From assembly GCA_038045985.1 (NCBI GenBank), contig JBBSXA010000017.1:18799-62485 (forward strand): a stretch of DNA of 43,687 bases. The letters run 5' to 3'. Positions 4,701-36,527 of the stretch are shown here, one piece after another (position 1 is the first letter of the stretch; every line of letters starts with the position of its first letter). Below the pieces are notes generated by a model. That model was not told the DNA's origin. It saw only the letters and a list, made by a program, of their open reading frames with translations, and searched no databases. The position numbers and the translations under genes are program-made. Source of the DNA: Nanobdellota archaeon (GTDB lineage: Archaea > Nanobdellota > Nanobdellia > Pacearchaeales > GW2011-AR1).

Positions 4701-5656
4701 AATATTTATCTTTCAAAAAATCTAAAAAAACACAGATTTTTACAGTCTTGTCCATAGTTTTAATTTTGCTTATGTTTGTTTCATTTGAGATTTTTTCCCT
4801 TATAAGAGAAAGGCAGGCAATAAGAACAAGAGTAGCCTCGATGGAAAGTTTTTTGAGCTCCATTGAAGACAATTTGGAGAGGCAGGTTTACATTTCAGGA
4901 TTTAGGATTTTGTTTCTGGCAAATTCGCATATAACCTCTACTGGAAATTACATCAATGTGGATGATTTTTTTCAGGAGGCTTTTTTTAATGGAACAGTTA
5001 GTGGAGCTAATGAAAGTCTTCTGGATGGAACAACTTACAAAGACATGCTTGATTCAATGAACAAAAAGGCTGCGAAGATAAATGTAGAAATAAACATGAC
5101 AAATTCTGTGCTTTTTGTTTCTCAGGAAGATCCCTGGAAAGTTAAAGTTACTCTGACGTCTTATTTTACAATGAGCGATAAATCTGGATTGGCAAGCTGG
5201 AACAGAACTCAAAATATCTCTGCTTATATCCCTATTGAGAGTTTTGAAGACCCTATTTATCCTGTAGAAACTGGCTTGCCTCAGATTTCCAAAAGAATTA
5301 ATAAGACTATTTACGAGGGGAATTATGTTTCAGGAGCGGATGTTTCTAATCTTTCGAAACATGTTCAAGATGGCTTGTATGCTGCTAATCCCGACGCCCC
5401 TAGCTTCTTGAAAAGATTCGAAGGAAATTTTTCTTCTGATGTTAATGGAATTGAAAGTTTTGTAAATATTCCCAATATGGAAGCTCAAGGAGCATCAACT
5501 GTTGTTAAATCTTCAGTAGACTATATTTACTTTTCCTCCAACGATCCTTTTCATTATGGCGTTGAAGGAATGCCTGTCTGGCTCAGAATTGACGGTGAGG
5601 ATGATCATGTTAATAAATATCAAGTTTTGGGTTTGCTTTGTCCTGCCTTGTGCTAG
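4697..5656 (+). CDS. Class III signal peptide-like secreted protein of the pilin cluster
   Basis: KKSKKTQIFTVLSIVLILLMFVSF N-terminus; 319-aa ORF with many N-x-S/T sequons. Confidence 0.7.
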
Positions 5657-5722
5657 TAAATATTCAATTTTTGACTTAATTTATTTTCATTGAGGAAAAC
5701 TTAAAAACCAGCGTATGCTTTT

Positions 5723-5950
5723 ATGAATATGAAAAAGAATAAATCCAAAAGAGTCGAGATAAGCTCAAAGGAAGTGAGGATAAATCTTGAGAGATTCCAG
5801 GAAGACATGAAGAATGCTTATGACAGATTGAAGAAGATTGTTCCGGAAGCGGTCAGCAATAAAGAGATAAGGCCTTATGGAAAATTCAGCCATATTATAC
5901 TCCCTAAGAAATATGCTCACAAAAAAGCGACGGTGATAATTAAAAAATAG
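5723..5950 (+). CDS. Small DUF2080/AbrB-like protein
   Basis: C-terminal KEIRPYGKFSHIILPKKYAHKKATVII resembles the DUF2080 swapped-hairpin pattern. Confidence 0.6.
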   Translation: MNMKKNKSKRVEISSKEVRINLERFQEDMKNAYDRLKKIVPEAVSNKEIRPYGKFSHIILPKKYAHKKATVIIKK

Positions 5951-6011
5951 TTTAGGAAAACATTTAAATACTAAACTTTCATAAAATGATTATATTAACA
6001 ATTAAATAAAA

Positions 6012-6017
6012 AGGAGG
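6012..6017 (+). promoter_or_regulatory. Shine-Dalgarno of the pilin gene, with TATA-like TTTAAATA near 5963
   Basis: AGGAGG 5 nt before ATG 6023. Confidence 0.75.
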
Positions 6018-6022
6018 TTGAT

Positions 6023-6475
6023 ATGTTATTTAACAGAAAAAAGGGACAGGCTGCTATGGAGTTCCTGATGACGTATGGTTGGGCTATATTAGCTGCAATT
6101 ATTGTTGTTGGGGTTTTGTGGTATTTGATTGGTAACCCTGCAAATCTTGCAGGAACTAATTTTCAGCTGGGTGCTCCATTAAGTGCGAATGCTGTTGTAT
6201 TTAGGGCTGGTATTCCCATTAATAGTATAACAATGGAATTTAGAAATGGTGCAGGTCAGCAAATAAATGTTACCAGTATAGTAATTTCTAATTGTGCTAC
6301 TATTACTCCTAATGTGTTTATGCCTCAAGGAAATTTGACTGCTTTTGACTTTGATTGCTTTCCAGATCTTGGTGCTGGAAACAGATTTATAGGTGATGTA
6401 ACTGTTTACTATGTTACAGCGCAGAGTAGCCTAACACAACAATCAACAGGTACTATCTCGGGCAAAGTTCCTTAA
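6023..6475 (+). CDS. Archaeal type IV pilin (probable major pilin)
   Basis: RKKGQAAMEFLMTYGWAILAAIIVVGVLWY, a typical archaeal class III signal peptide; strong SD; T-rich tract after the stop. Confidence 0.9.
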   Translation: MLFNRKKGQAAMEFLMTYGWAILAAIIVVGVLWYLIGNPANLAGTNFQLGAPLSANAVVFRAGIPINSITMEFRNGAGQQINVTSIVISNCATITPNVFMPQGNLTAFDFDCFPDLGAGNRFIGDVTVYYVTAQSSLTQQSTGTISGKVP

Positions 6476-6524
6476 TTTTTTATTTTTATTCTAGTTCTTA
6501 TTTGTTTGACTATTAGCTTGGGCT

Positions 6525-6794
6525 TTGAAGAAAATGAAAAACAAAGGAGTTTTTACATCTGAAGCTTGGAATGATTTAGCAACTATGAAAGACCCAAATA
6601 GATGGTATCATCTAAATGAAATTGCTAAAGCTTCCAAAAAAACTCCGATTATAATGGAAAAACGTCTTGATTTAGCAGTAAAACTTAAAATTCTTTTAAA
6701 AAAAGGAATAGGAAGAAGGATTTTTTATAAACTAAATCCAGAAGACTCTCAAGTTAAAAATATGTTGAATGTTTTATCTGTGGTAGAAAAATAA
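6525..6794 (+). CDS. Small winged-helix-like protein
   Basis: WYHLNEIAKASK...LLKKGIGRRIFYKLN pattern. Start could be ATG 6534. Confidence 0.55.
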   Translation: MKKMKNKGVFTSEAWNDLATMKDPNRWYHLNEIAKASKKTPIIMEKRLDLAVKLKILLKKGIGRRIFYKLNPEDSQVKNMLNVLSVVEK

Positions 6795-6869
6795 CTAAGC
6801 CTTAATTCACATCAATAAGTTAACCAAAAGACAAGTTTTAAAAGTAGAATATTTCTTTTTAATTGATAA

Positions 6870-7014
6870 GGCCTTATAGTCTAATGGCAGAACATCTCGT
6901 TTACACGCGAAGGGAACCAAGTTTCCTTACCGCACTACCCTCCTTTTTGAGGAAGCCGCTTATGCGAAATCGCTAAAAGCCGAGAAGGCGGAGGTCCGAT
7001 TCCTCCTAAGGCCA
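6870..7014 (+). tRNA. tRNA-Val: tRNA-Val(TAC) with 74-nt intron at 37/38 (6906-6979); CCA not encoded
   Basis: Acceptor GGCCTTA/TAAGGCC plus A; anticodon stem TCTCG/CGAGA; anticodon TAC 6902-6904; T arm GGAGG-TCCGATT-CCTCC; BHB with central TTTA/TAAA helix, bulges CAC and AGC, outer GCGA/TCGC. Confidence 0.93.
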
Positions 7015-7029
7015 TCCTTTTATAAGTTA

Positions 7030-7425
7030 ATGAATATTAATTTAAATATGAAAAAAGAAACATTTCACAAAAAATGGTATTATCGATTGCTTCAAATAAT
7101 CTTTCTGGGTTTTTTCATATTCTTTATAATTGTAGGTTTTCGGGGTATTTTTTACGGAGAGGGTGAGCCATTTGTTGGGTTCATCTTTGCAGGCATTTTA
7201 GCTATTGTGTACTGGCTAATCATGAAAAATAAAGGTTCAATAGGTGGTTTCGTTTTTGGTGTAATAGTTGGCCTTCTTTTATTATTTATAATATCTAAAC
7301 TTAATCCTGGAGATGAAATAGCCGGAATAGTGATATTTACCTTATTAATAAGCGGATTATTTTTTGCGTTTATAGGCTACTTGATTCATAATTACTTTGG
7401 AAAGAAGAATAAAAAATCTTTCTAA
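7030..7425 (+). CDS. Hypothetical multi-pass membrane protein
   Basis: About four hydrophobic segments in 131 aa. Confidence 0.65.
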   Translation: MNINLNMKKETFHKKWYYRLLQIIFLGFFIFFIIVGFRGIFYGEGEPFVGFIFAGILAIVYWLIMKNKGSIGGFVFGVIVGLLLLFIISKLNPGDEIAGIVIFTLLISGLFFAFIGYLIHNYFGKKNKKSF

Positions 7426-7456
7426 AATATATAAATTATTAGCCATTGTGAATATT

Positions 7457-7726
7457 ATGAAAAAGAGCAGAATAAATCCTAAGAAAAAAACAAATGCTGG
7501 TGCATTGCATAAATTGCCAGACGATTTACGAAATGCCCTTACTTCTATACCTGCAGCGCAAGAAGCATGGGAAGATATTACGCCGCTTGCGCGCAATGAG
7601 TGGATCTGCTGGGTTGAGTCAGCCAAGAAACTGGAGATGAGGAGCCACCGAATCGAGAGGATATGTACGGAGCTTATGGAAGGAAAGCGCCGGCCTTGTT
7701 GTTGGGCTGGATGTCCACACAGTTGA
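7457..7726 (+). CDS. YdeI/OmpD-associated family protein
   Basis: LPDDLRNAL...AWEDITPLARNEWICWVESAKKLE.R..RI...L.EGKRRPCCWAGC. Likely start ATG 7457. Confidence 0.8.
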   Translation: MKKSRINPKKKTNAGALHKLPDDLRNALTSIPAAQEAWEDITPLARNEWICWVESAKKLEMRSHRIERICTELMEGKRRPCCWAGCPHS

Positions 7727-7914
7727 AATTAAATAGACTGCCAAAAAAATATAGAGATGTTCTTTTTCTTGTTGATATTGAAGAAAGGCCTTATAAAGAA
7801 TCCTTGGAGATTTTGGAAATACCCTGCGCAACTTTAAAATCAAGGCTTTTTAACGCCAGGCAAATTTTAAAGGAAAAATTAATGGCAAAATCCAAGGCTA
7901 TTAGTAACATTTAA
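7711..7914 (+). CDS. Stand-alone sigma70 (ECF) region 4 HTH domain, possibly a gene remnant
   Basis: LNRLPKKYRDVLFLVDIEERPYKESLEILEIPCATLKSRLFNARQILKEKL matches the ECF region 4 pattern; no region 2 upstream. Confidence 0.65.
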   Translation: MSTQLKLNRLPKKYRDVLFLVDIEERPYKESLEILEIPCATLKSRLFNARQILKEKLMAKSKAISNI

Positions 7915-23591: not shown

Positions 23592-26500
23592 ATGAAGAGG
23601 GGCAGAAAAAAGGGTTTGTCAGAAGTTGTTACGGCATTAATTGTTATTCTTATAGTTCTTGTGGCTTTGACTATAATATGGGTTGTTGTGAAAAGCATTC
23701 TCAGCACGGGAACAGATGACATTAATGTGAACAGGCTGACTATTGATGTTGGAATTGACTCTGCTAACATTGATAATTCAACAAACAGCATATGTGTCAA
23801 GGTGAAAAGAGATCCTGGATTGGGAAATTTAAAGGCATTGAAGTTTATATTCTATAATCTCACAGACAGTGAGGAATTTATTCAGGACGCCACTTTATCA
23901 GAGCTTGAAGAAAGGCTTTTTTGCTTTACGCTTGTGAATCTTGATGTGGATAATCTTACAAGAATCGCTATAGCTCCTATTATAGAGACAGCGTCAGGCA
24001 GCGAGGTTTTTGGAGATATCATTGACACTTATAATATTAGGGGGGGAAGTTCAGGCAGGGGATCTAGCTCTTCATCTGGAAGCTCATCGTCTGGCGGATG
24101 CACGCCAACACTAACTTGTTCTTCTTGGAATGCAGCCTGCGGAACTCCTAGTGACGGATGCAATCCTTTACCAAGTTGTGGAACCTGTGGAGGTGGACAG
24201 TTCTGCAATGCGACTTATCAATGTGAACTTGCTCCCTGCAATTTGACAAATGCTTATTGGCTTCAAACAAATGTTGTTGTTGGAACTTTTGTCGGCTTGA
24301 ATGTTAGCGGGACAAATTGTAATGGTTTAACAGTTAATTTCACAGTCTGGGAGGATGACATTAATTCTGCAGATGATCTTATAAATGTGTCTGGTCCGGC
24401 AAATGCAGTGTTTTCAGGAACAAACGCAATAGGTTTCTGGCAAGCTGAATATCAATTTGATGAAGGCGCAGAAGCAAGTGTTGATCCGGAATATTATTTC
24501 AATGTAACTTTAGTTGGCAACTCTTCTGAATGGATTTTAAGCAGTCCGCCAGTGCTAAGTGTGACAGAGTTTGCAACCTGTATAGACAGCGATGGGGATA
24601 CTTATAATACTTCTTCGGGAGGAGCTTGCGGAACGCAATCTGACTGCAATGATTCAAATATAAATATTTATCCTGGAGCGGCGGAAATATGCAATGGTGT
24701 TGATGATGATTGCAATGCTGGAACTATTGAAACTTGCCCAACATTAAATTATTATTGTGATGGCGATACTGATACTTACAGGAGCTTGTCAATTTCTGGG
24801 AGCTGTTCAACTTATAATTGCGTTCCAGGAAGCTGTTCGCAGACAGTTGGAAACGACTGCAACGATACAAATATAAATGTTAATCCAGGAGCTACAGAAA
24901 TTTGTGACGGAGTTGATAACAATTGCGTTGGAGGAATTGATGAAGGAGGGGTTTGCGGGGGAAATCCAACATACCTGAATTGCGCAGCTGTTCCGGCAAA
25001 TGTTTTAGGTGGAAAGACTTGTGTTGAGGTTACAAGTTGTGGGACTTTGAATATAACTGATTCTTATTATTTAATGATGAATGATGTGTCTTCTGCAAAT
25101 AGCTGTTTCTTTGTAAATAACAGGAACATTACACTTGACTTAAATAATTATACCGTTACATACGCTAGTGCTGGTTCAATGGTTAATTGCGGAACATTAA
25201 GACTTAGCAGAGATGGTTTACCAGATAATTCTCCGGATAATATATGTCACTTTGGTATTTATCAGTCAAACCCGGATCTTTTTTTAGGGTTAACAATGGT
25301 TCCCGATAGTCCACCCGGACTTTCTAATAGCGTTCAATATTTTACTTTAAAAAATGGAAGAATAGAACAGTTTGACGGCTCGGCTGATTATTCTGCAGCT
25401 ATTATGTGGAAGAATGGCAATCTTACAGTTGTTGATGTTACGGCCACTGCCAAAGGGAAAAATTCTGATACATTGAACTGCATGATATTAGGTTATTGTT
25501 CTGGAGCACAAATTTATAACAATGAATTTTACAGCGTTGGCCCTTTAATTCAGCAGTCGGACAGAAACGCTAATTTTGGAACACTGAGATTAAACGGAGA
25601 TTATTCTAATGTTTATAATAATAAATTATGGTATAGTCGTCAAACAGGTATAAATTTAGGTGCAAGTTATTCAAAAATTTACAATAATGATATAGCACAA
25701 AATCAGAGTGCAGAAAATGCTTTCTCGATTTCTTGTTGGGATTGTTCTGACAATGAAATATATAATAATTATATTCATCCTTTTAATGGAAGGGGAATTA
25801 TAATTGATAACGCTGCTAGAAGAAATAAGATTTACAATAATACGATTATTGTTAAAGAATCAAACAGAACTCAAATTGAAGGATATCCTTTGTCACAAGC
25901 ATATGCTTTGCGTATAAGAACTTGGGCTGCAAATAACAATTTTGATAATGAAGTTCACAATAATAACCTAACTGCTTATGCTGGATTTCCAGGAATGGAA
26001 AATGATGGAACAGGATTAATTTTGACTTTTGTCGACGGTGCTCAACCTAACGGTTATAATCCAAATTACATCTATAATAATACAATTACTGCCATTAGTT
26101 TTAACACCAATTACATTGCAAGCGCTGTGGGTATTGAAGGACCTGATAATGATACCCCTCCTATAGGGATTTTTTTTAGTGGAAATACGTTAGCAGGAAA
26201 TAGTCATTTAATCTCTGTTGGCACTATTGCTGGAAATGACCGCGCTGGCCATGATTATGAATTCATTAATACGCTTTTTAGGAAAGAGGGAATGGATTTG
26301 CCATCATTTTCTGCTGTTGATTTGCATGCAGGTACGGATGCAAACTACCAAGCTAATAACATAACTGTTTTAAACGCCAGTTTTTCAGGAGGAGCAAGTA
26401 TAAATGACATTACTTTTGATAGCGTAAGATGTACTCTATTTCCTCCATGTTATTATTTCTTGAAATGGTTTTTGAATGTGAATGTTTTTGATGGGGCTAA

Positions 26501-29500
26501 TCCTGCACAGAATGCACAGGTCACTATAAGAGATTCTTTTAACAATATTGTTTATTCTGGTTTTACATATTTAAATGGATCTGTTCCCATACAAAATCTC
26601 ACTGAATTTAAGAATCAATTTTCTGTTGGAAAAACTTATTATACTTCTCATAATGTTACAGTAACTTACAATTCTACAACACAATCAAGACTTGTGAACA
26701 TGAATCAATCAAGAACAGAGGATTTTGTGTTTAGTGGTGGAGGAGCTCCAGGCACCCTCACTTCAATTCACAATTCTCCTGTAAATAACTTTAATATTAC
26801 TAACGGAAGCTCTTTTTTATATAACGTTACACTTTTCTGCAATGGTGGAATTTGCGGAGACGTTGTTGCGACTTTAGATCCGTATTGGAATGGTATGTTT
26901 GGATTTAATTATATGAGCACAGGAACAGGACTGACTGTTCTTGATACAAGTGATGAGATGATTGCTATACCTTTCAAGTTTATAACAAATGGAACACCTA
27001 CATCAAGCGTAACAAATGTTTATACCTTATTGGGGGGAGCTGGAACACCTCCAGCATATAATTTGGGTTTAGTGGCAGATAATGCAGGAACTCCCGGAAC
27101 AACTTGGCTTGGAGCGTCAAATAATGGATTTTGCGCAATAACACCGTCACTTACTCAAAGCCTTCAAGGATGCAATTTAATAGAAAATGTAACACTAACT
27201 AATAACACTGTTTATTGGGTTTTGATGAATTACAGCAGCGGAACAATTGACGGAGGAAATAATGCAAGAGCAATTAGCTTTAGCGAACAAGCAGGACATA
27301 GTCTTGAGCAGGCATATCTTAAGAATATGGAAGATAGAGATATTCAATTTTGGTTTTTTACTTTAGGAGTGTGGACATTACAAACAGGAAATGGCGCCCA
27401 ATTTGTTTTAAATTACCAAAGAGATGACTTAGCTCAATACGGAAATCCTTATATTTCCTCTGTTACAAACAGTATTTACGGAATTCAATTGGCTGCAGAA
27501 GTCTTTCAAGTGGATGAAAATATAACAGTCAGCAATGTAAGCTTAACAACAAGCGAAGCAGGAACTCCTCCTTGTGCTGGAGAGTTTGTTTTAGTAAATG
27601 GTGTTCCCGATGTTAACTGGAATGCAAATGCTTTAGCAAGGTGCTCTGTTCCGTCAACATGGACAGGAACAGCAGTAAGAGGATGCAACTTTGCAAGCGC
27701 AGTTAATTTGACTAAAGGAAATAATTATACAATACTTCTTAGAGATATGAATAATACCTGCGATGCAGTAAATAGATTAACAGGAACAATATCTCAAAGT
27801 GTTTACGGAAATTCTTATGCAATAGATTTAACTTATGATGGAAGCGGAAGTTATTTTGTCAATACAACTGATAATGGAACAACATGGACAACTGATTATT
27901 CTAAAGATTGGGCATTTGCTTTTAATTATTCCTTGACACCATCTCAAGGTGCTCAACCCCCAACATCAAAAGGAGTTGTTTCTCAAGGGTCTGGAACTCC
28001 TTTTTACACAACTTCATCTAATCCACAATCATGCTTGAATATGCAAAGCGGGAATTCGTGCAATTTAATCTGGAATGTTTTCGCAAATGGGACTTTACAA
28101 AATTATGATTTCTTTGTTATATTTAATGCAACAGATCCGCTTGTCACAGATATAAATTCATCAACAATAAATATTTCAATTGTTCAGCCTCCTTGCAATT
28201 TAACAAATGCACTTTGGTCAACGAGTAGCGTGGTTCAAGGAACACAAGTAACTTTAACAGTTAATGGGACAAACTGTGACGGAAAAGCCTTGAACTTTAC
28301 AATTAAGGAAGATGATTTTAGTTTTGGTGGAGAAGATACTTTTGACGATGATGTGACAATTAATCCTTCAAATGCAAACTTTGTTGGAAACACAGCAACA
28401 ACAACTTGGATTGCAGAACATCAGGGTGATGGAATTCTTGGAGGAGATCCAGAATATTATTTCATATCCACTTTAGTAAGCAATGCAAGTGAAAACATAA
28501 AAAGCAATCCGCCTTTGTTAAGTGTTTCACAAGATACAATCCCTCCAATAATTACAAATGTTCAGGCAATAAGCATTACTGAAAATTCTGCGACAATATC
28601 TTGGACAACAAATGAGAATGCAGATTCAAAGGTTGAATATGGCCTTACAACCAGCTATGGAACAAATACTACTCTTGACACAAATTTAGTTACATCACAT
28701 TCACAATTAATTTCAGGGTTAACAAATGATACATTATATCATTACAGGGTTTTATCAAATGATTCTGCAGGAAATTTAAATAGTTCTGGAGATTATAACT
28801 TTACAACATTGAGTCCTGGAGCAGCAGGACAGCATTTAAACTGCACTGATATTAACTTATTATATCCATCTATGACTTGTGTTGAAGTTGCAAGCTGTGG
28901 ATTAAATCTTAGCGCTTATAACACTTATTATATTTTGATGAATGATATAAGCTCAGCAAACACTTGCATTATCGTGAATCCTTCCACAATTCCTAACCAA
29001 AATCCACCATTGAGCATTTTTGATTTGAATCAATACACTCTTACATTTGGTGAATCCCTTGGTGTTGGACAATACGGAATAGACATTCAAGGAGGGTTTA
29101 ATTTTAGGCCAAATATAGAAATTAAAAATGGTTTTATTAGACAAGGGGCTGGAAATGGAACAGATTGTGTAACAATTGATGGAAGCTCTTCAAGCCCAAA
29201 CCAAGAATATCATCATCTTAATTTGTTCACTTATGGGTGGGATTGTGGGAATCTCAGAATAGCTGGAAAGAATATTACAATCAGAGACAATTACCTTGAG
29301 CAGAATGTTTCTTATGTTACAGACAGAGCTAGAAAAGCAATAAATCAAATAGGAGTAAGTCAAACTGATGCAAGTGGAGCATTTGGTTTTCTTGTAGGAA
29401 AATTATTGATTTATAATAATACTTTAAGAGGCAAAGGACAGATGGGAATATCTGCCACTAGATACTCTGCAGCTGCTTGGGGAAATTCTACTGCATTAGG

Positions 29501-31208
29501 TTTTGTCCAGGGAATGAATATATCTTACAATGATATAAGCATGGAAGGAGTTGTCGCAAATCCGTATGCAATCGTTATTAGTGGCTATGAGGCAAACCAG
29601 TATTACACACCAGTTATACACAATAATAATATTCATCAAATTAATGCCAGAGGATTAGACTTGGATGGAATTGATGATTTGATAGGAATGAAAGGAGGAT
29701 TAGTTTATAATAATATTTTTGACGCAAAGCAAGGGTGCTTAATAGATAATAATGGGGGTAGTTTTCAGGGGTATAGCTGTGGCGTTCATTCGTTAAGGAT
29801 TAGAACTTCTGATGGTTACTACAGAACCGCTTTCTTCAATAATCTAGGCAATGTAACGATAGGTAACTCGTCTGACCCTGGAACTCTATTAAATCCGGGA
29901 ATTAGAAATTATACTACAGGATTAAGATTCCAAAATGTTCAAATTCCTCAAGGAGCAGATATAACCTCTGCTTTTCTTAGGGTAGTTTCAGGTTCTGACA
30001 ACTCTTTAACAACTGTCAATGTTCGATTTAGAACACAAATCGATAATAATCCTGGAAATTTTACATCTTATGAGAATTTTGTTGGTAGAAATCGATCCTC
30101 CTCAAGCGTGCAATGGAGCAATGTTCCTGCCTTTATCAATGGGTTAACGTACACCTCACCTAATATTTCTCTAGTTATTCAAGAAGCAATAAACAGTGCA
30201 AACTGGGTACAAGGAGATCCCTTAGTCATATTCATAGATGATGATGGAAGCTCTTCTGGAGCTATAAGAAATTTGAGAACATATGAATCAGGAAGCCCTG
30301 CAATACTTACAGTTAACTACACTACAGGGGGTCCTGAAGCAAGCATTTCTGTCCCGATAGTTCAAGGAGGAGATGATGCATACATTTTCGGAAGGCGTTT
30401 TCAAAATCCTTACGGTGAAAACGGAAACAATGTTTTCATAAACAATACAATAATAATGAGACAAGGAGAATTGCTTCCTGACGGAACTTTAAGCGGAGAT
30501 GGGTATGCCGTTCGTATAAGTCTTAGAGATTATAATCAAAGCTTAAACATGACATTTATTAATAATACCTTTATAGCATATACAAATTCAACATTTGATG
30601 GGTGCATTCCAGCGTGCACTGATGCTACAGAAGCCACTCCTTTGTTTATTGATGATATTCTTCCAAACAATAATCTGCTATTCAAAGGAAATACTTTCAT
30701 AAGCAATTATCTTCCTTTATGGAGCGCTGGAAACGACATTGTCTTTGAGAATAACAAGATTTTGAGACAGGGAGTTGTAAATCCAAATTACAAGCCTATA
30801 GCCATAGGCTATTATACTTGGGGTGTTGCAAATAATTCATTCTTTAATCAGACTTTTGAAAATAGCGTTGGATTTAGCGGATTAGTTTATAGAAGCACAG
30901 GATTTGCTTTAAGAGATATAACTATAAAATGGCCTTTGGACGTTTCTGTCACCAGCGGAGGAAATCCTGCAGTTGGTGCAAATGTTGAGGTCAGAAATAT
31001 TTCTAATAGTTTAATTGGCAATGGAGTCACTGATTCAAATGGAATATTCAAAATAAATGTTACTGAATTTTTTGAAGAATGCGATGGAATTAATTGCATT
31101 AAGGCAAGAACAAACCACACACCCCACAACATTACAGTTACATTTGGCTCAACCCAATCGAGAATCGTCACAATGAACCAATCTCGAACTGAGAATTTTG
31201 CGTTTTAG
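23592..31208 (+). CDS. Giant modular pilin-fused surface adhesin (2538 aa)
   Basis: RKKGLSEVVTALIVIL class III signal and pilin-like domain; Ser/Gly linker; Cys-rich and DCND...PGA.EIC.GVD.(D/N)C repeats; two parallel beta-helix modules (I/Y-x-N-N ladders); FN3-like DTIPPII...ATISWTTNENADSKVEYG. Confidence 0.88.
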   Translation: MKRGRKKGLSEVVTALIVILIVLVALTIIWVVVKSILSTGTDDINVNRLTIDVGIDSANIDNSTNSICVKVKRDPGLGNLKALKFIFYNLTDSEEFIQDATLSELEERLFCFTLVNLDVDNLTRIAIAPIIETASGSEVFGDIIDTYNIRGGSSGRGSSSSSGSSSSGGCTPTLTCSSWNAACGTPSDGCNPLPSCGTCGGGQFCNATYQCELAPCNLTNAYWLQTNVVVGTFVGLNVSGTNCNGLTVNFTVWEDDINSADDLINVSGPANAVFSGTNAIGFWQAEYQFDEGAEASVDPEYYFNVTLVGNSSEWILSSPPVLSVTEFATCIDSDGDTYNTSSGGACGTQSDCNDSNINIYPGAAEICNGVDDDCNAGTIETCPTLNYYCDGDTDTYRSLSISGSCSTYNCVPGSCSQTVGNDCNDTNINVNPGATEICDGVDNNCVGGIDEGGVCGGNPTYLNCAAVPANVLGGKTCVEVTSCGTLNITDSYYLMMNDVSSANSCFFVNNRNITLDLNNYTVTYASAGSMVNCGTLRLSRDGLPDNSPDNICHFGIYQSNPDLFLGLTMVPDSPPGLSNSVQYFTLKNGRIEQFDGSADYSAAIMWKNGNLTVVDVTATAKGKNSDTLNCMILGYCSGAQIYNNEFYSVGPLIQQSDRNANFGTLRLNGDYSNVYNNKLWYSRQTGINLGASYSKIYNNDIAQNQSAENAFSISCWDCSDNEIYNNYIHPFNGRGIIIDNAARRNKIYNNTIIVKESNRTQIEGYPLSQAYALRIRTWAANNNFDNEVHNNNLTAYAGFPGMENDGTGLILTFVDGAQPNGYNPNYIYNNTITAISFNTNYIASAVGIEGPDNDTPPIGIFFSGNTLAGNSHLISVGTIAGNDRAGHDYEFINTLFRKEGMDLPSFSAVDLHAGTDANYQANNITVLNASFSGGASINDITFDSVRCTLFPPCYYFLKWFLNVNVFDGANPAQNAQVTIRDSFNNIVYSGFTYLNGSVPIQNLTEFKNQFSVGKTYYTSHNVTVTYNSTTQSRLVNMNQSRTEDFVFSGGGAPGTLTSIHNSPVNNFNITNGSSFLYNVTLFCNGGICGDVVATLDPYWNGMFGFNYMSTGTGLTVLDTSDEMIAIPFKFITNGTPTSSVTNVYTLLGGAGTPPAYNLGLVADNAGTPGTTWLGASNNGFCAITPSLTQSLQGCNLIENVTLTNNTVYWVLMNYSSGTIDGGNNARAISFSEQAGHSLEQAYLKNMEDRDIQFWFFTLGVWTLQTGNGAQFVLNYQRDDLAQYGNPYISSVTNSIYGIQLAAEVFQVDENITVSNVSLTTSEAGTPPCAGEFVLVNGVPDVNWNANALARCSVPSTWTGTAVRGCNFASAVNLTKGNNYTILLRDMNNTCDAVNRLTGTISQSVYGNSYAIDLTYDGSGSYFVNTTDNGTTWTTDYSKDWAFAFNYSLTPSQGAQPPTSKGVVSQGSGTPFYTTSSNPQSCLNMQSGNSCNLIWNVFANGTLQNYDFFVIFNATDPLVTDINSSTINISIVQPPCNLTNALWSTSSVVQGTQVTLTVNGTNCDGKALNFTIKEDDFSFGGEDTFDDDVTINPSNANFVGNTATTTWIAEHQGDGILGGDPEYYFISTLVSNASENIKSNPPLLSVSQDTIPPIITNVQAISITENSATISWTTNENADSKVEYGLTTSYGTNTTLDTNLVTSHSQLISGLTNDTLYHYRVLSNDSAGNLNSSGDYNFTTLSPGAAGQHLNCTDINLLYPSMTCVEVASCGLNLSAYNTYYILMNDISSANTCIIVNPSTIPNQNPPLSIFDLNQYTLTFGESLGVGQYGIDIQGGFNFRPNIEIKNGFIRQGAGNGTDCVTIDGSSSSPNQEYHHLNLFTYGWDCGNLRIAGKNITIRDNYLEQNVSYVTDRARKAINQIGVSQTDASGAFGFLVGKLLIYNNTLRGKGQMGISATRYSAAAWGNSTALGFVQGMNISYNDISMEGVVANPYAIVISGYEANQYYTPVIHNNNIHQINARGLDLDGIDDLIGMKGGLVYNNIFDAKQGCLIDNNGGSFQGYSCGVHSLRIRTSDGYYRTAFFNNLGNVTIGNSSDPGTLLNPGIRNYTTGLRFQNVQIPQGADITSAFLRVVSGSDNSLTTVNVRFRTQIDNNPGNFTSYENFVGRNRSSSSVQWSNVPAFINGLTYTSPNISLVIQEAINSANWVQGDPLVIFIDDDGSSSGAIRNLRTYESGSPAILTVNYTTGGPEASISVPIVQGGDDAYIFGRRFQNPYGENGNNVFINNTIIMRQGELLPDGTLSGDGYAVRISLRDYNQSLNMTFINNTFIAYTNSTFDGCIPACTDATEATPLFIDDILPNNNLLFKGNTFISNYLPLWSAGNDIVFENNKILRQGVVNPNYKPIAIGYYTWGVANNSFFNQTFENSVGFSGLVYRSTGFALRDITIKWPLDVSVTSGGNPAVGANVEVRNISNSLIGNGVTDSNGIFKINVTEFFEECDGINCIKARTNHTPHNITVTFGSTQSRIVTMNQSRTENFAF
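31161..31201 (+). repeat. 41-bp direct repeat, copy 1 (3' end of giant adhesin)
   Basis: AGAATCGTCACAATGAACCAATCTCGAACTGAGAATTTTGC, identical to 32582-32622. Confidence 0.95.
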
Positions 31209-31274
31209 TTTTTTGAACTTGATGCGTAAGCACTCCAGATATTGGAGGCGTTTGAGTATTGTTTTTGAGAATTA

Positions 31275-32486
31275 TTAATTCAACAGCCATTTCCAAACAG
31301 GCATTATCTTTATTTTTTTGCCATCGATTTTAAATTCATCTTCTTGATTAAAAGTTAAAATTAATCCTTCTTTTAAACCGAATTTTTCTAACACCTTTTT
31401 AATGCCGTTTATTTCTCTTTCTTTATTGTCGTCATTTAAATCATAACACACCTGAATTGCCTTGATAATTTTTATTCCTTCTTTAATAACAAAATCACAC
31501 TCTCCTCCATCCTGAAAATAAAATATTTCCTTATAATTTTTTCTTAAATTTATAAAAACTAGGTTTTCAAGCATTTTTCCATTGTCTTGGGAAAAAGAAG
31601 CAGAGTTAATATTTGTTAAACCATTATCAATTGAGTATATTTTTTTGGGACTAACAAGCTGCTTTTTCAATGAATAACTAAATTTAGGAACTGTAAACAT
31701 CAAGTAGCTATCCTCTAAATATGAAACAAATGCTATTGCGCTGTTTGTTGAGCCTAAATTAAATGTTTTTTTGAGACTGTTATAAGAAAATTCCTTCCCT
31801 ACATTGGTTAATAGATATAAAGCCATTTCTCTTAATGACTTTAGACTTCTAACTTTATGTCGAATTGCTATATCCCTTATAAGAATGTCATTAAATAACT
31901 CCTGCAATATAGCAGATTTTTTTAATTTCAAATACTCTGGAAACCCTCCACCAATAAAATATCTTTCAAAAGAATTTATACTTGATTTTTCATTAATTAA
32001 TAATAAAAATTCTGTGTAAGAAAATGGAAAGAGCTCATATCTTAGATGCCTTCCAGTAAGTCTTGTTCCTAGCTCTTTGCTTAATAAAGAGGCGTTTGAA
32101 CCAGTTATAATAACATGTTTTCTTCGGTCTAGAAGAGCTCTGACAAAAAGTTCCCATTTCTTAACATTTTGCATTTCATCAAAAAAATAGTAATTTTTCT
32201 CTCCATGTTCTTCCTTAAATATTTCATCAAGTTTTTGAAAGTCATCAACTTCAAAGTTAACTGCCCGCGGATCTTCAAAATTAAAATAATAAAAATCCTT
32301 GACTTTTTTCATAATTTGTTTTAATAGGGTGCTTTTTCCACATCTTCTTATTCCTGATAAAACTAATACAAATGGAATTTTAACATCTATTTTTTTCAAG
32401 GCTTCTCTTTCTATGCTAGATTCTGCCAAGTCTAAACTTTCCTTTTGTGTTCTAACTATATTCTTTAATGTTTCCTTAAGTATCAT
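31275..32486 (-). CDS. AAA+ ATPase (AAA_14 + DUF4143, COG1373-like)
   Basis: GIRRCGKST Walker A, FFDEMQ Walker B, ITGSNASLLS, LTGR, GGFPE, KKIYSIDNG, ECDFV...IQVC C-terminus. Confidence 0.92.
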   Translation of the reverse strand: MILKETLKNIVRTQKESLDLAESSIEREALKKIDVKIPFVLVLSGIRRCGKSTLLKQIMKKVKDFYYFNFEDPRAVNFEVDDFQKLDEIFKEEHGEKNYYFFDEMQNVKKWELFVRALLDRRKHVIITGSNASLLSKELGTRLTGRHLRYELFPFSYTEFLLLINEKSSINSFERYFIGGGFPEYLKLKKSAILQELFNDILIRDIAIRHKVRSLKSLREMALYLLTNVGKEFSYNSLKKTFNLGSTNSAIAFVSYLEDSYLMFTVPKFSYSLKKQLVSPKKIYSIDNGLTNINSASFSQDNGKMLENLVFINLRKNYKEIFYFQDGGECDFVIKEGIKIIKAIQVCYDLNDDNKEREINGIKKVLEKFGLKEGLILTFNQEDEFKIDGKKIKIMPVWKWLLN

Positions 32487-32515
32487 AAAATGTAAAAAGA
32501 AACTCTGTTTTTAAA

Positions 32516-32559
32516 TGTTTGCATTACTAATGAACACTTTTGTTCATTACAGATGAACA
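32516..32559. promoter_or_regulatory. Tandem palindromic operator-like sites upstream of the ATPase
   Basis: TGTTCAT-TACAG-ATGAACA (32541-32559) plus a degenerate copy 23 nt upstream; next to the minus-strand TTTAAA box at about 32510-32515. Confidence 0.6.
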
Positions 32560-32581
32560 AGTTTCTTTGGATTGACAGTCA

Positions 32582-32628
32582 AGAATCGTCACAATGAACC
32601 AATCTCGAACTGAGAATTTTGCCTTCTA
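32582..32628 (+). repeat. 41-bp direct repeat, copy 2: orphan adhesin 3' end with its own stop
   Basis: Encodes RIVTMNQSRTENFAF* but an in-frame TGA lies three codons upstream, so it is not part of a gene. Confidence 0.93.
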
Positions 32629-32682: not shown

Positions 32683-35124
32683 ATGGGAAATAAAAAGGGG
32701 TCTTCGGAGATAATAGCGAGCTTCATCGTAATTTTGATAGTCTTAGTTTTTTTAACGATAGTTTGGGTGGTTGTTAAAGGGCTAGTTGATGATAAAAATC
32801 AAGATACAAATGCTGAAGGGATAAAATTAGATGCTAAGATTGAAAAAGTTGTTTTAGATAATTTTTCAAATAATGCAAGCATTAAAATTAAAGGAAACTA
32901 TGGATATGAAAATTTAACAGGATTGAAATTCATATTTTATGCTAAAACTCAAACAGAGGAATTTTCAGTGAATACCTATCTTGAAGAGCTTGAAGATAGA
33001 TTTTTTGTCTTTCATCTAAATTATTTAAATGTTTCAGATTTAACAGAAATATCTGTAGCCCCTATTCTAGAGACTGTGTCTAATGGTGAGATTCTTGGAA
33101 ATGTGACTGATACATATAATGTTGTAGCAAGTTCTGGTGGAGGAGGCGGAGGAGGAAGCTCTTCGTCTGGAAGCTCATCTTCTGGAGGATGTGTGCCAAA
33201 AACATGCCAAAATTTAATGGCAAGCTGCAGCAGCCCAAATAACGGATGTGGGGGAACTTTAAATTGTGGAAGCTGTGCATCTGGCAAGACTTGCAATAGT
33301 TTGTATCAATGTGTGCCACAAGCTCAGCATTTAACATGCGCTAATATAGTGCAAATGCATCCAGGAGCAAATTGTGTTCAAGTAATAGCTTGCGGGACTT
33401 TGAGCCAGTACAATACTTACTATCTTTTAATGAATGACATCTCTTCTGATAATGATTGCATTACAATTGATCCTTCTTTGCAAAGTGATGGAAGCCTTCC
33501 TCCAATTATATTTGATCTAAATCAATATATGGTTATGTTTGGAAATGTGAAGGGTCAGAATCAAAATGGAATTTACATAACGGGAAACTCTAATAGAAAA
33601 CCAAATATTGAGATAAAAAATGGATACATAAGACAAGGAGCTGGAAACGGAACAGATTGCGCTTCAATTAGAGGAGGTTATTGGTCTCCAAATAAAAATA
33701 TATCAAATATAAATGCATTTGCTTATGGGGTTGACTGTAAAAATATTGACATTAATGGAGGCAAGAATATAACAATAATAAATAATTATCTTGAGCAAAA
33801 TGTTTCTTACGTTACTGACAGGGCTGGAAAAGCAATAAGTCAAATTGGCGTTGGCGGACAGGGGAATATTGGAGAAGGAGATGCAACCCTTGGAGGATAT
33901 TTGAAGATAATTAATAACACTCTTAGAGGCAAAGGACAGATGGGAATTACTGCTGGAAGATCTACTGCTGCTGCATGGGGCAATTACACTGCGCTGGGAA
34001 TTATTCAAGGAATGGAAATTGCTTATAATGACATAAGCATGGAAGGTGTTGTTGCAAATCCTTATGCAATAGTTATTAATGGCTATGAATCAAATCAATA
34101 TTACACACCTTTAGTTCATGACAATTACATTCACCAAATAAATGCAAGAGGAATTGATATTGATGCTATTGATGATCTGCTTGGAATGAAGGGCGGAAAA
34201 CTTTACAATAATTATATTGACACAAAACAAGGATGCTTGATAGATAATCTGGGAGGAGACACATCAAGGTCTCCAAGCTGCGGGACTCATTCATTAAGAA
34301 TAAGAAGCTCTGATGGTTATTACAGATCTGGCGGGAGTTTGTCAAATCCTTACGGAGAAAATTCTAATAATTTAATTTATAACAACACAATAATTTCAAG
34401 AGGAGATGAGCTGCTGCCTAGTGGAGAATTGAGTGGTTATGGGTATGCTGTTCGTATAAGTGTAAGAGATTTCAATCAAAGCCTAAACATGACATTTGAA
34501 AATAACACAATAATTTCTTATACAAGTTCAACAGGAAGCAATGTCAAGTCAGTTTATATTGATGATGTTATTCCTGGCAATAAATTAATTTTCAAAAATA
34601 ATAAATTTATAAGCAATTATAATCCTCTTGAAGTTGCCGGCTCTGATATTTTATTTTTGGACAATCAAATTAATAAATCCGGCACTTTGAATTCTGGCTA
34701 CAGACCATTGACTATAGGCTATTGGACATTCCAGGCAACAGGAAATATTTTCTTAAACCAGTCTTTTGTTAACAGCCCTGGCTTTGACTCTGTTGTTTAT
34801 CAGGGGACTGATGGAGGAAATTTAAAGAATATAACGGTTAAATGGCATGCCAAAGTTTATGTTACTAGTGGAGGAAGCCCTGTGTCTGGGGCAAGTGTTG
34901 TTATAAAAGATGCATTTTCAAGTCAGGAATTTTTAGGCGTAACTGACTCAAGCGGTTTTGCAAGAACTAATCTAACCGAATTCAAAGAAGCCTGCAATTT
35001 TCAGGGATGCACACCCTCAAAAACAACCTACACTCCTCATAATGTTTCTGTGAATTATAATTCTGTGAATCAGTGGAGAATCATCACAATGAATCAGTCG
35101 AGAATTGAGAATTTTGCGTTCTAG
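32683..35124 (+). CDS. Pilin-fused beta-helix adhesin, paralogue of the 2538-aa protein
   Basis: NKKGSSEIIASFIVIL signal; same pilin domain and SSSSGSSSSGGC linker; beta-helix very similar to the last module of the giant protein; ends MNQSRIENFAF. Confidence 0.88.
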   Translation: MGNKKGSSEIIASFIVILIVLVFLTIVWVVVKGLVDDKNQDTNAEGIKLDAKIEKVVLDNFSNNASIKIKGNYGYENLTGLKFIFYAKTQTEEFSVNTYLEELEDRFFVFHLNYLNVSDLTEISVAPILETVSNGEILGNVTDTYNVVASSGGGGGGGSSSSGSSSSGGCVPKTCQNLMASCSSPNNGCGGTLNCGSCASGKTCNSLYQCVPQAQHLTCANIVQMHPGANCVQVIACGTLSQYNTYYLLMNDISSDNDCITIDPSLQSDGSLPPIIFDLNQYMVMFGNVKGQNQNGIYITGNSNRKPNIEIKNGYIRQGAGNGTDCASIRGGYWSPNKNISNINAFAYGVDCKNIDINGGKNITIINNYLEQNVSYVTDRAGKAISQIGVGGQGNIGEGDATLGGYLKIINNTLRGKGQMGITAGRSTAAAWGNYTALGIIQGMEIAYNDISMEGVVANPYAIVINGYESNQYYTPLVHDNYIHQINARGIDIDAIDDLLGMKGGKLYNNYIDTKQGCLIDNLGGDTSRSPSCGTHSLRIRSSDGYYRSGGSLSNPYGENSNNLIYNNTIISRGDELLPSGELSGYGYAVRISVRDFNQSLNMTFENNTIISYTSSTGSNVKSVYIDDVIPGNKLIFKNNKFISNYNPLEVAGSDILFLDNQINKSGTLNSGYRPLTIGYWTFQATGNIFLNQSFVNSPGFDSVVYQGTDGGNLKNITVKWHAKVYVTSGGSPVSGASVVIKDAFSSQEFLGVTDSSGFARTNLTEFKEACNFQGCTPSKTTYTPHNVSVNYNSVNQWRIITMNQSRIENFAF

Positions 35125-35264: not shown

Positions 35265-36527
35265 ATGATTAAGAATTTAGACAAAAAAATAAGAGCTTAT
35301 GCTTTAAAGAATGCAATCGCTTATAATGGGAAGGCTAATTCTGGAAGTGTTCTTTCCTCTTTATTCAATGAAGGCCTGAAAAAAGAAGAGGTTAATGGCA
35401 TAATGCCTAAGATTCAACAAGTAATTAAGGAAATAGAAAAACTTTCTTTAAGTGAGCAGGAAAAAGAATACGAAAAATTGCATGAAGTAATAAGCGAGAG
35501 ACATGGAAGAGAGGGGCTTCCTGAACTGCCTAATGCTAAAAAGGGAAAAGTTATTATGAGATTTAGGCCTGCGCCTTCAGGCCCGTTGCATGTTGGTCAT
35601 ATAATTTCCAATCTTGCGTCTTCACTTTATGTAAAAAAGTATGGAGGTAAGTTTTATGTAATTATTGACGATACTGATCCTGAAACTACTGTTTTAGAGT
35701 CTTACAAAAGAATAAAAGAAGATTGCGATTGGATTTTTGGAAATGTTCACAAATACCTTAATAGCTCTGACATGGTTGAGAATCATTATGAATATGCTGA
35801 GAAATTAATAAAGAAAGATTCAGCGTATGTCTGCATATGCTCACAGGAGAATTTTAAGAAGTTTTCTTTGGAAAAAAGAAATTGCCCTTGCAGAAATTTA
35901 TCTGTTAAAGAGAATCTTGAGAGATGGAAAAAAATGCTTGGTAAAAAAGGATACAGATTTTCACAAGTTCAGTCTGTATCGTCCAAGCTTGGTCAATACA
36001 AAGAAGGAGAAGCTGTTTTGAGATTTAAGACTCCGAACGAATTTGGGGGAATGAGCCATAAAAATCCCGCAATGAGGGATTTTCCCCTGGCTAGAATAAA
36101 TGTTAAAAGCCATCCTATCCAGAAAAATAAGTATAGAGTCTGGCCTCTTATGAATCTTGCCGTTGCTGTTGATGACATGGAATACAGGATGACTCACATA
36201 ATAAGGGGAAAAGACCACAAAGACAATGCAGAAAGGCAGAAAATGATGTTTAAAGTTTTTAATAAAGAGTATCCATGGACATTTTTTATTGGGAGGATTA
36301 AGTTCACTGATCTTGTGCTATCCAAAAGAAAAATAAGCTCTTTGATAAAAGCGGGAGAGTTTTCAGGGCATGATGATGAGAAGCTTCCTACAATTTCTTC
36401 TTTGAAGAAAAGAGGATATAAGCCAGAAACATTTGTAAAATTTATTGAACAAAGGGGTTTGACAGGAGTAGACAAGGTTATTTCCGGGAAGGATTTTTTT
36501 GAATCATTGGATGTTTTTAATAGATGA
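35265..36527 (+). CDS. gltX: Glutamate--tRNA ligase, archaeal type, lacking the C-terminal anticodon-binding region
   Basis: YALKNAI..NGKA N-terminus, MRFRPAPSGPLHVGH (HIGH), DDTDP, AYVC.C, NPAMRD, VWPLMN, THIIRGKDH, LSKRK (KMSKS-like). Confidence 0.9.
   Translation: MIKNLDKKIRAYALKNAIAYNGKANSGSVLSSLFNEGLKKEEVNGIMPKIQQVIKEIEKLSLSEQEKEYEKLHEVISERHGREGLPELPNAKKGKVIMRFRPAPSGPLHVGHIISNLASSLYVKKYGGKFYVIIDDTDPETTVLESYKRIKEDCDWIFGNVHKYLNSSDMVENHYEYAEKLIKKDSAYVCICSQENFKKFSLEKRNCPCRNLSVKENLERWKKMLGKKGYRFSQVQSVSSKLGQYKEGEAVLRFKTPNEFGGMSHKNPAMRDFPLARINVKSHPIQKNKYRVWPLMNLAVAVDDMEYRMTHIIRGKDHKDNAERQKMMFKVFNKEYPWTFFIGRIKFTDLVLSKRKISSLIKAGEFSGHDDEKLPTISSLKKRGYKPETFVKFIEQRGLTGVDKVISGKDFFESLDVFNR

Follow-up and report, generated by a model that had tools for sequence, protein, structure and literature searches.

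Restriction-modification (RM) units of bacteria can enter a chromosome together with a long duplication of the target, a form of insertion described by Nobusato et al. (2000) and extended by Furuta, Abe and Kobayashi (2010; PMC2853133). In the latter paper, the flanking repeats are longer than 30 bp, variable, unique in the genome and often placed across the start or stop codon of the target; no mobility genes accompany the insertions, and one case consists of a single gene, mcrA. Empty sites defined the cases, and the screen retained no archaeal one; the authors proposed a cycle in which units insert, are amplified by way of their repeats and are released again. A different family, PDC-S01, consists of an ATPase fused to a PD-(D/E)XK domain and is described in PMC12988326 as very common, enriched in archaea and repeatedly transferred across domains; by frequency it ranks fourth there among prokaryotic 'defence systems', with a defence activity that is not yet validated. 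PMC3424549 places DUF4143/COG1373 among the PD-(D/E)XK families of unknown function. In the text consulted, PMC3424549, PMC12988326, PMC4158269 and a 2026 bioRxiv preprint do not link DUF4143, COG1373 or PDC-S01 to flanking repeats or to cassette mobility, and in a 2024 bioRxiv preprint on embedded defences the terms 'direct repeat' and 'duplication' have 0 occurrences. Here we describe a PDC-S01 gene of a Nanobdellota archaeon that lies between two copies of the end of its neighbour, in a stretch of 43,687 nucleotides (GenBank assembly GCA_038045985.1, contig JBBSXA010000017.1, positions 18,799 to 62,485; hereafter the window, with positions counted from its first letter). In the literature searched, the route by which PDC-S01 genes travel is not described; what we see in the window and in related loci is a unit of about 1.3 kb, complete in itself. 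With moderate confidence, we read the segment from 31209 to 32559 or 32575 as a single-gene mobile cassette that was inserted behind the stop codon of a surface-protein gene by Campbell-type recombination.

The ATPase gene occupies 31275..32486 on the minus strand. Around it stand two direct repeats with an exact core of 41 nt, at 31161-31201 and 32582-32622; the copies are spaced by 1,421 nt, and the 1,367 nt that they bracket hold one gene only. The first-pass annotation of this DNA had already picked out an exact 41-bp repeat around some 1.4 kb, with nothing inside but the ATPase and its promoter palindromes, synonymous differences between the copies and more diverged copies elsewhere, and each of these observations holds. 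The core is found exactly twice in the genome (889,329 bases in 45 contigs, 89% complete), and the reversed control pattern has no match there. If two small indels are allowed, the copies can be aligned over 31136-31207 and 32560-32628 (69-72 nt). Copy 1 (31136..31207, plus strand) is the working 3' end of the surface-protein gene; the repeat spans the stop of this target gene, which remains intact. Copy 2 (32560..32628, plus strand) is a dead stub of the same 3' end: an in-frame TGA at 32573-32575 directly precedes the 17-codon stub, which therefore belongs to no gene. The two copies are part of a 53-nt repeat family of four members, with 31155-31207 as the reference, 32576-32628 at 92% (49/53), 35071-35123 at 83% and 26682-26734 at 74%.

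Both copies translate to QSRIVTMNQSRTENFAF*. The five nucleotide differences in their 54 coding positions (TAG versus TAA counted) are all third-position and synonymous, and all lie at the two edges. In the flanks of the core, five of five third positions differ and eight of eight non-third positions match; within the core, none of 13 third positions differs. Edge differences confined to third positions, around an exact core, therefore point to old coding homologues with a recently exchanged core rather than to a fresh duplication that has drifted, and hence to exchange with a homologue borne by the element. The distal 16-19 nt of the stub carry a 1-nt and a 2-nt indel, and the adjoining 53 nt are free of replacement changes. 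The stub begins at 32560, the next base after the end of the outer operator at 32559.

That operator belongs to the promoter region of the cassette (32487..32559, minus strand), which contains two tandem palindromic operator-like sites at 32518-32536 and 32541-32559. The operator-like site is unique in the genome. This TTCATTA-N-TAATGAA pair is kept in the closest homologues, equally far upstream of the gene; other lineages have variants of their own, and the putative operator sequence co-varies with the protein. Homologous cassettes from the same phylum (72-73% nucleotide identity) align from 31276-31295 to 32557-32559, that is, from the ATPase stop to the outer operator edge, and the outer operator-like site is the 5' border of the cassette. 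An all-against-all blastn comparison of homologous loci (L numbers below) gave the same borders: cassettes 86-97% identical in DNA lie within unrelated flanks in at least nine lineages. Examples are the pairs L062/L063 (96.9% over 1,273 nt), L035/L038, L044/L117 and L040/L112; further like cassettes in unrelated flanks are L081/L092, L094/L160, L107/L174 and L159/L165. The left breakpoint falls at the first operator, 63-88 nt before the start codon, in eight of the nine pairs with a printable left border, and the right breakpoint 6-80 nt after the codons for a conserved P-x-W-K/E-W/F motif. In L061, L062 and L063 the flank provides the stop codon, because the right breakpoint falls inside the last codons. 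The cassette ends have no terminal inverted repeats, and no inverted repeat pairs or marks them. In Pfam the cassette has no transposase domain; its sole open reading frame (ORF) is AAA_14/DUF4143. These data support the view that the ATPase segment is a discrete inserted cassette with no recombinase gene inside. Moreover, its base composition is foreign: the GC content is 28.1% for the gene and 28.3% for the cassette versus 33.6% for the genome, which places the cassette at the 1.5th percentile of 2,782 genome windows. The L114 locus has an orphan copy of the operator region (5430-5475, 85% over 46 nt to L110 2950-2995) directly upstream of an unrelated secreted repeat-protein gene.

The stop codons of the surface-protein gene and of the ATPase gene are separated by a spacer of 66 nt (31209..31274), in which a small hairpin, CTCCA-gatat-TGGAG, can be seen by eye at 31233-31247. 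This spacer is not common to related cassettes; the phylum homologues align only from 31276-31295 on.

Within the same genome, the bracket of the ATPase gene is exceptional. As a control, the best direct repeat between two 600-nt flanks was scored for 278 ORFs of at least 250 aa. The top two places went to the two testable ATPase paralogs, with scores of 49 for a paralog on contig C30 and 43 for the window gene; a surface-protein paralog came third with 30.5, and all others scored 18.5 or less. The C30 paralog, whose protein is 31% identical, sits between a truncated copy of the aspartyl-tRNA synthetase (AspRS) gene (19.7 codons plus promoter) and the intact AspRS 5' end. Its bracket measures 59 nt (55/59), or 93 nt with the promoter, and contains an exact core of 33 nt with two occurrences in the genome. 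A third ATPase paralog of this genome (G000) lies at C32:32411-33502, 159 nt from the contig end, and the contig may break at a repeat.

Beyond this genome, brackets recur around homologues at a rate well above that of control windows, which were shifted by at least 1 kb. After loci with a truncated gene or without 700-nt flanks on both sides had been dropped, 51 of 80 metagenome loci and 65 of 80 loci on GTDB contigs were kept. Brackets were present in 8/51 metagenome loci versus 3/441 control windows, and in 6/65 GTDB-contig loci versus 3/434. Together the two large sets give 14/116 against 6/875, an odds ratio of about 20, for which P values are rough because the control windows overlap. 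Two bracketed records are duplicates (L066 of L138, L042 of L113), and collapsing them leaves 12/114; L104 and L105 are likewise the same sequence. Among the relatives, three of 11 loci are bracketed (L010, L011 and L015), as are four of nine of the closest cassettes in a sample of 400 genomes of the phylum.

The six matches in control windows deserve a closer look. Three are tandem paralogs, and three bracket single defence-like genes beside the ATPase. In L061, a gene with DUF4062, HATPase_c_4 and Fic_C domains (5213-6949) is flanked by a 44-nt exact repeat of a host gene end. In L063, a Schlafen AlbA_2 plus HATPase_c_4 gene (5152-6805; 31 nt) and a DUF3990 gene (6510-7857; 105 nt, 97/105) are flanked likewise. 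The bracketing route thus seems to be general for small defence-island genes. Several candidates were rejected. The tandem paralogs just mentioned are the three control matches of L155 and not cassettes; an 80-nt repeat in L008 (spacing 2,949) belongs to a pair of paralogous genes at a distance from the ATPase; and a tRNA-like 33-nt repeat in L006 (79%) scored too low to count. A comparison of L107 with L174 shows an extra gene of 1.5 kb beside the cassette, with no clear bracket.

Wherever it is readable, the duplicated piece is the extreme end of a host ORF, with the intact copy on one side of the cassette and a truncated copy on the other. The target is a 3' end in the window, L011, L040, L062, L039, L195 and L167, and a 5' end in L004, L105 and the L061 neighbour. 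As in the window, the repeat spans the start or stop of the intact target in L004, L011, L040, L062, L105, L039, L167 and L195. Repeat length across the loci ranges from 23 to 227 nt. Some brackets are exact (L066, 28/28; L057, 26/26; L162, 26/26; L015, 50/50) and others diverged: L010 has 35 nt at 34/35, and L011 has 105 nt at 91/105 within 218 nt, at the 3' end of a flippase-like gene. In L015, the 3' end of a remnant ATPase abuts the operator region of a full cassette, which is a head-to-tail junction. The stub in L062 combines two target-gene pieces which a related contig has some 900 nt apart, and therefore derives from a longer duplication trimmed later. Transfer RNA genes also serve as targets. 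In L110 and L114, two loci from Bathyarchaeia whose proteins are 62-63% identical, the target is tRNA-Gly(CCC), and the layout is an intact tRNA-Gly, 65 nt, the cassette with the ATPase as its sole gene, and a 5'-truncated tRNA copy. The copy has 52 nt at 51/52 in L110 (about 67 nt overall) and 23 nt in L114, at repeat spacings of 1,337 and 1,320 nt, respectively; the upstream flanks are common to the two loci, and the downstream flanks differ. The first-pass annotation had proposed the C-terminal motif of the adhesin as a recombination or integration site. A dedicated role of this motif is not supported, as related cassettes use the AspRS 5' end, the flippase-like 3' end, tRNA-Gly and other targets. 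In Dyadobacter (L046, L119-L122) and in a Cytophagales group (L072-L077, L144, L146), the cassette is found in the same context of 7-9 kb in several species, at 83-98% nucleotide identity; an inserted cassette gene can therefore pass vertically for long.

Evidence from reads was taken from Logan contigs (k=31) of four runs, X1, X2, X5 and X6. X1 and X2 are possible source samples and come from the source study, X6 is from an independent study, and the runs that contain the window stretch are groundwater metagenomes. In X1 and X2, one record ends at 31190, one covers 31172-32611 and one starts at 32593, so that the breaks come 30 nt into the core on each side. In X6, a contig of 306 nt (depth 4.49, 0 mismatches) joins 32477-32581 through the core to 31161-31348. 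This contig has the joint that either an excised circle or a tandem copy should show (a backward jump of 1421 nt), and it contains the CAGTCA-core-GTTTTAG sequence that the first-pass annotation had foreseen for the excised form. Another X6 contig matches the operator region only (32508-32557), with unlike sequence on both sides, and may represent a related operator in another context or organism. As to enzymes, the statement that the locus has no integrase is right for the cassette and wrong for the cell: the genome contains two tyrosine-recombinase-like frames (PF00589), on contigs C32 and C38 and none on the contig of the window. It has no match to PF00239.

The protein itself is a 403-aa AAA+ ATPase with a winged helix and a PD-(D/E)XK-like nuclease domain, assigned by Pfam and by the PADLOC PDC-S01 profile. 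It matches AAA_14 at residues 40-161 (129.2 bits, cut-off 27), DUF4143 at residues 204-348 (81.4 bits, cut-off 28.1) and PDLC04787 with residues 22-403 on profile positions 8-408 of 412 (E 3e-114, 380 bits). PDC-S01 genes are present in DPANN-like archaea, other archaea and bacteria, and the closest relatives of this cassette are records from Bathyarchaeia, Micrarchaeota, Nanoarchaeia and Woesearchaeota. The ATPase motifs are intact, with Walker A at G45-K51 and Walker B at D103-E104; G45, R47, G50, K51, D103 and E104 are invariant in 47 sequences. E307, E329 and D331 of the nuclease motif are also invariant. The (D/E)xK position reads Q345-V-C in the clade of the window and E-x-K in the distant paralogs L004, L005 and L016. 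An AF2 model has a pLDDT of 92.6 for the whole protein and 89 for the C-terminal domain alone. Whole-protein fold searches returned generic AAA+ proteins, with Orc1/Cdc6 on origin DNA at the top, followed by STAND Avs, MuB, RuvB and RFC. The C-terminal domain gave weak matches, McrC being the best (E 1.4e-3, TMq 0.43), then Can2, DdmD and NucS, all of which are PD-(D/E)XK nucleases. Nuclease activity is therefore plausible; we read the protein as a putative NTP-driven nuclease, probably directed against viruses, that may regulate itself through binding of its winged helix to the operators.

The host locus is a tandem array of paralogous surface-protein genes in three units, with a common tail motif at the end of each. 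The intact target gene is a giant ORF of 2,538 aa (23592..31208, plus strand) in which two paralogous units are joined in frame and whose last 17 codons and stop are repeat copy 1. In Pfam it exceeds the cut-off for Cu-binding_MopE (59.9 bits) and Pur_ac_phosph_N (32.8 bits) and stays below it for fn3, Beta_helix and Big_6. A repeat search placed an internal diverged copy of the tail motif, 74% identical to copy 1, at the junction of the fused units (26682..26734, plus strand); this tail of unit 1 runs on into SGGG... without a stop, and long paralogous repeats connect units 1, 2 and 3. The downstream paralog of 813 aa (32683..35124, plus strand), recognized from the ORF list and by the paralogous repeats D1, D2, D4 and D7, begins 54 nt after copy 2 and has its own tail at 35071-35123, 83% like copy 1. 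Its start, MGNKKGSSEIIASFIVILIVLVFL... (32683-32790), resembles what we take to be the motif of an archaeal class III (pilin-type) signal peptide. The tail peptide pattern has four sites in the genome, all at this locus, and no match in loci L006-L108. Comparison of the DNA behind the three tails showed no similarity beyond chance (P 0.07-0.6). Rfam has no match at the cassette locus, and a sigma-70 promoter and terminator scan, whose models are ill-suited to archaea, gave nothing above shuffles. Elsewhere in the window, Rfam matches a tRNA of 145 nt at 6870-7014 on the plus strand (48.5 bits) that ARAGORN did not report and that is probably an intron-containing archaeal tRNA. A Glu/Gln-tRNA synthetase-like ORF at 35265-36527 (plus strand) has only 420 aa, with a match to the catalytic domain, and an ORF on the opposite strand follows directly. 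Archaeal traits of the genome include a diphthamide synthesis gene and an intron-bearing tRNA.

In the mechanism that we infer, a circular form of the cassette would have carried a short, diverged copy of a surface-protein tail, and a crossover between this copy and the tail in the chromosome would have taken place within the 41 identical nucleotides, in the manner of a Campbell-type insertion-duplication. The last 17-24 codons of the surface-protein gene would thereby have been duplicated, one copy ending the gene and the other remaining as the dead stub. A reverse crossover would release the circle, which is itself a presumed intermediate. The catalyst could be host homologous recombination, a recombinase acting in trans (for example, one of the tyrosine-recombinase-like genes elsewhere in the genome) or the cassette protein. 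We favor a route that the cassette does not encode, because unrelated single genes carry the same bracket.

A number of observations weigh against insertion of a circle by this route. Most homologues have no bracket: 102/116 in the large sets, 8/11 among the relatives and 5/9 in the phylum sample. The same bracket around unrelated single genes indicates a general route and argues against the ATPase itself doing the work. In X1 and X2 the flanks cannot be phased, because the k=31 contigs break inside the 41-nt core, and the depth of the cassette is near that of its flanks (20.1 versus 17.5 and 21.4 in X1; 14.0 versus 11.4 and 11.3 in X2). With its low depth, with hardly any coverage of the chromosome flanks in X6 and with a k below the length of the core, the junction contig could be a graph artefact. 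The first-pass annotation had looked to an empty site or alternative cargo at the locus, and neither was found. The four runs contain no empty-site joint (a skip of 1421), parts of the locus being uncovered in X5 and X6; 40 relatives, none of the same genus, gave no such allele and only ATPase matches of at most 72% nucleotide identity; the 41-mer had 0 exact matches in JGI metagenome contigs; and a search of 400 phylum genomes with the cassette DNA reached 73% at best. Among 28 whole homologue contigs (1.4-6.5 kb), there is no circular terminal overlap. A weak point of the mechanism is that a plain crossover of diverged sequences does not produce an identical core, so that prior identity or mismatch correction has to be assumed. 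In addition, a codon test that pools nine repeat pairs is suggestive only: synonymous differences number 69 and non-synonymous ones 71, and third positions account for a share of 0.54. By codon position the differences are 37/28/75, and pN/pS is 0.29; after transition bias and codon-position counts are considered, the pooled test gives P values of 0.0008-0.22 according to the expectation assumed. The five differences in the window itself are clear. Finally, the tandem array of paralogs at the locus offers a local explanation of the repeat, considered below.

Four alternatives were considered. We can hardly credit that the arrangement is an assembly artefact, in which an empty site and a free circle of 1,421 nt, or the arrangement of another strain, were mis-joined through the 41-nt repeat. 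A k=31 graph indeed cannot separate these arrangements, and the Logan contigs of both source runs break in the core. However, the contig of the window spans both copies, each with its own flank variants; assemblers with words longer than 53 nt would presumably resolve the repeat; cassette and flank depths in X1 and X2 are about equal; and the same integrated architecture is present in many independent assemblies of homologues. A strict long target duplication deserves more attention, although we regard it as unlikely. It supposes that a linear or circular cassette entered at two distant staggered breaks and that fill-in gave identical copies of 50-70 nt; drift, or allelic recombination between the flanking genes and those of other strains, would then have made the copies differ. 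The nearest published insertions follow this pattern (PMC2853133). Repeat lengths that range over 23-227 nt, and that are unequal at one and the same tRNA target (L110, 67 nt; L114, 23 nt), agree with it, as do the several exact brackets (L066, L057, L162, L015 and the L061 neighbour, 44/44), and a single drifting copy is compatible with the pooled codon test. Against it, drift is unlikely to be so discontinuous and so synonymous as in the window, where 5/5 third positions differ in the flanks, 0/13 in the core and no others, and where two indels in the distal 19 nt of the stub adjoin 53 nt without a replacement change. Allelic recombination, for its part, would require two separate exchanges, each ending within 53 nt.

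The paralogous array suggests an alternative that we judge improbable, namely that copy 2 is the relic of a fourth surface-protein gene whose body was replaced by the ATPase gene, leaving the last 17-23 codons, and that the 41-nt core became identical when a short stretch was converted by the neighbouring tail. The tails in this array are 74-83% alike, saturated synonymous divergence in the flanks of an identical core resembles a converted paralog tail, and tandem paralogs also produced bracket matches in control locus L155. Yet the same bracket stands beside single-copy genes and tRNAs without an array (AspRS, tRNA-Gly, CBS-HTH, a ligase and the flippase-like gene), so that, of the two origins originally entertained, an integrated ATPase unit fits better than an overwritten paralog. 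The stub moreover ends exactly at the conserved operator border of the cassette, and lies 54 nt before the start of the next paralog, as expected for the original intergenic spacer. Lastly, the cassette protein could itself be the recombinase, with its AAA+ and winged-helix parts binding the operator pair and its nuclease cutting and joining at short homologies, independently of any host integrase, which strikes us as somewhat more doubtful still. In its favour, cassettes of many lineages begin at the operator pair and stop with the ORF, protein and operator sequence vary together, whole-protein fold searches rank Orc1/Cdc6 on origin DNA first and list MuB as well, and another gene is never found inside the bracket. 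These points are offset by the same bracket around unrelated single genes, by the replacement of the canonical nuclease Lys with Cys in the clade of the window, and by fold matches that are generic for AAA+ proteins; tight borders could also result from repeated transfer with selection for a minimal working unit. It is likewise improbable, to about the same degree as a relic paralog, that PDC-S01 genes are autonomous minimal mobile elements whose single protein recognizes its terminal operator pair and drives excision of a circle and re-integration at short homologies in gene ends and tRNA genes.

If Campbell-type insertion of the cassette is correct, insertion with long target duplication, known from bacterial RM genes, would also apply to a second large family of defence genes and to archaea whose genomes are tiny. 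It would show concretely how single-gene defence candidates can come to be 'embedded' in other loci, and would offer a testable form of gene mobility, dependent either on a new enzyme or on recombination by the host across 25-70 nt of homology. It would also carry a warning, in that genes abundant in defence islands may owe part of this abundance to selfish spread. Were PDC-S01 autonomous, its protein would represent a recombinase or transposase of a new kind, and this would explain single-gene defence candidates embedded across both domains.

Several known systems share features with the cassette. In Campbell insertion-duplication, a single crossover duplicates the segment shared by the two partners, the repeat is as long as the homology carried, and the reverse event excises the circle; it is mainly a laboratory tool and a property of plasmids. 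Its natural use by units of 1.3 kb with 23-230 nt of homology was not found documented in the literature searched. Integrase-mediated elements at tRNA genes and gene 3' ends are bounded by attL and attR, which have an identical core and diverged arms. The cassette shares with them the identical core, the diverged arms, a target restored by element-borne sequence with a partial copy left behind, the use of tRNA-Gly (L110, L114) and a candidate circle junction, seen here once. Unlike them, it has no recombinase in its 1.3-kb unit, its targets are unrelated, and the length of the duplication varies at the same tRNA (67 versus 23 nt). Integron cassettes are single-gene units, often for defence or stress, with circular intermediates; they form arrays, are mostly promoterless, end in attC and enter at attI beside intI. 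A single-gene mobile unit, and the neighbouring bracketed single genes in L061 and L063, are integron-like. In contrast to an integron cassette, the unit described here brings a promoter and operators of its own, lacks an attC-like inverted repeat at its ends, uses sites at the ends of host genes and has no integrase frame on its contig. It differs from DNA transposons and insertion sequences by the lack of terminal inverted repeats and of a transposase domain and by repeats of variable length (23-227 nt). In function, McrBC type IV restriction is an analogue, and McrC is the best, though weak, fold match of the C-terminal domain of the cassette protein; McrBC, however, is a two-protein GTPase system.

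The closest likeness is to the RM insertions with long target duplication. Shared with these are repeats longer than 30 bp (53 nt, 41 of them exact), a repeat that is not multicopy, an intact target and no mobility gene. The exchange system is therefore not as undescribed as the first-pass annotation had supposed, similar insertions being known for bacterial RM systems (PMC2853133); for this gene family we found no such report in the literature searched. The differences are that the RM insertions have bacterial RM cargo, whereas the cargo here is a PDC-S01 ATPase-nuclease found in archaea and bacteria, and that empty sites, which defined the RM cases, were not found for it. The repeat of the window further departs from the RM pattern by its diverged synonymous flanks around an exact core. 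Compared with RM insertions, these cassettes also have defined ends, marked by the operator pair on one side and by the close of the ORF on the other, and tRNA targets without an integrase; they would thus extend a known type of insertion.

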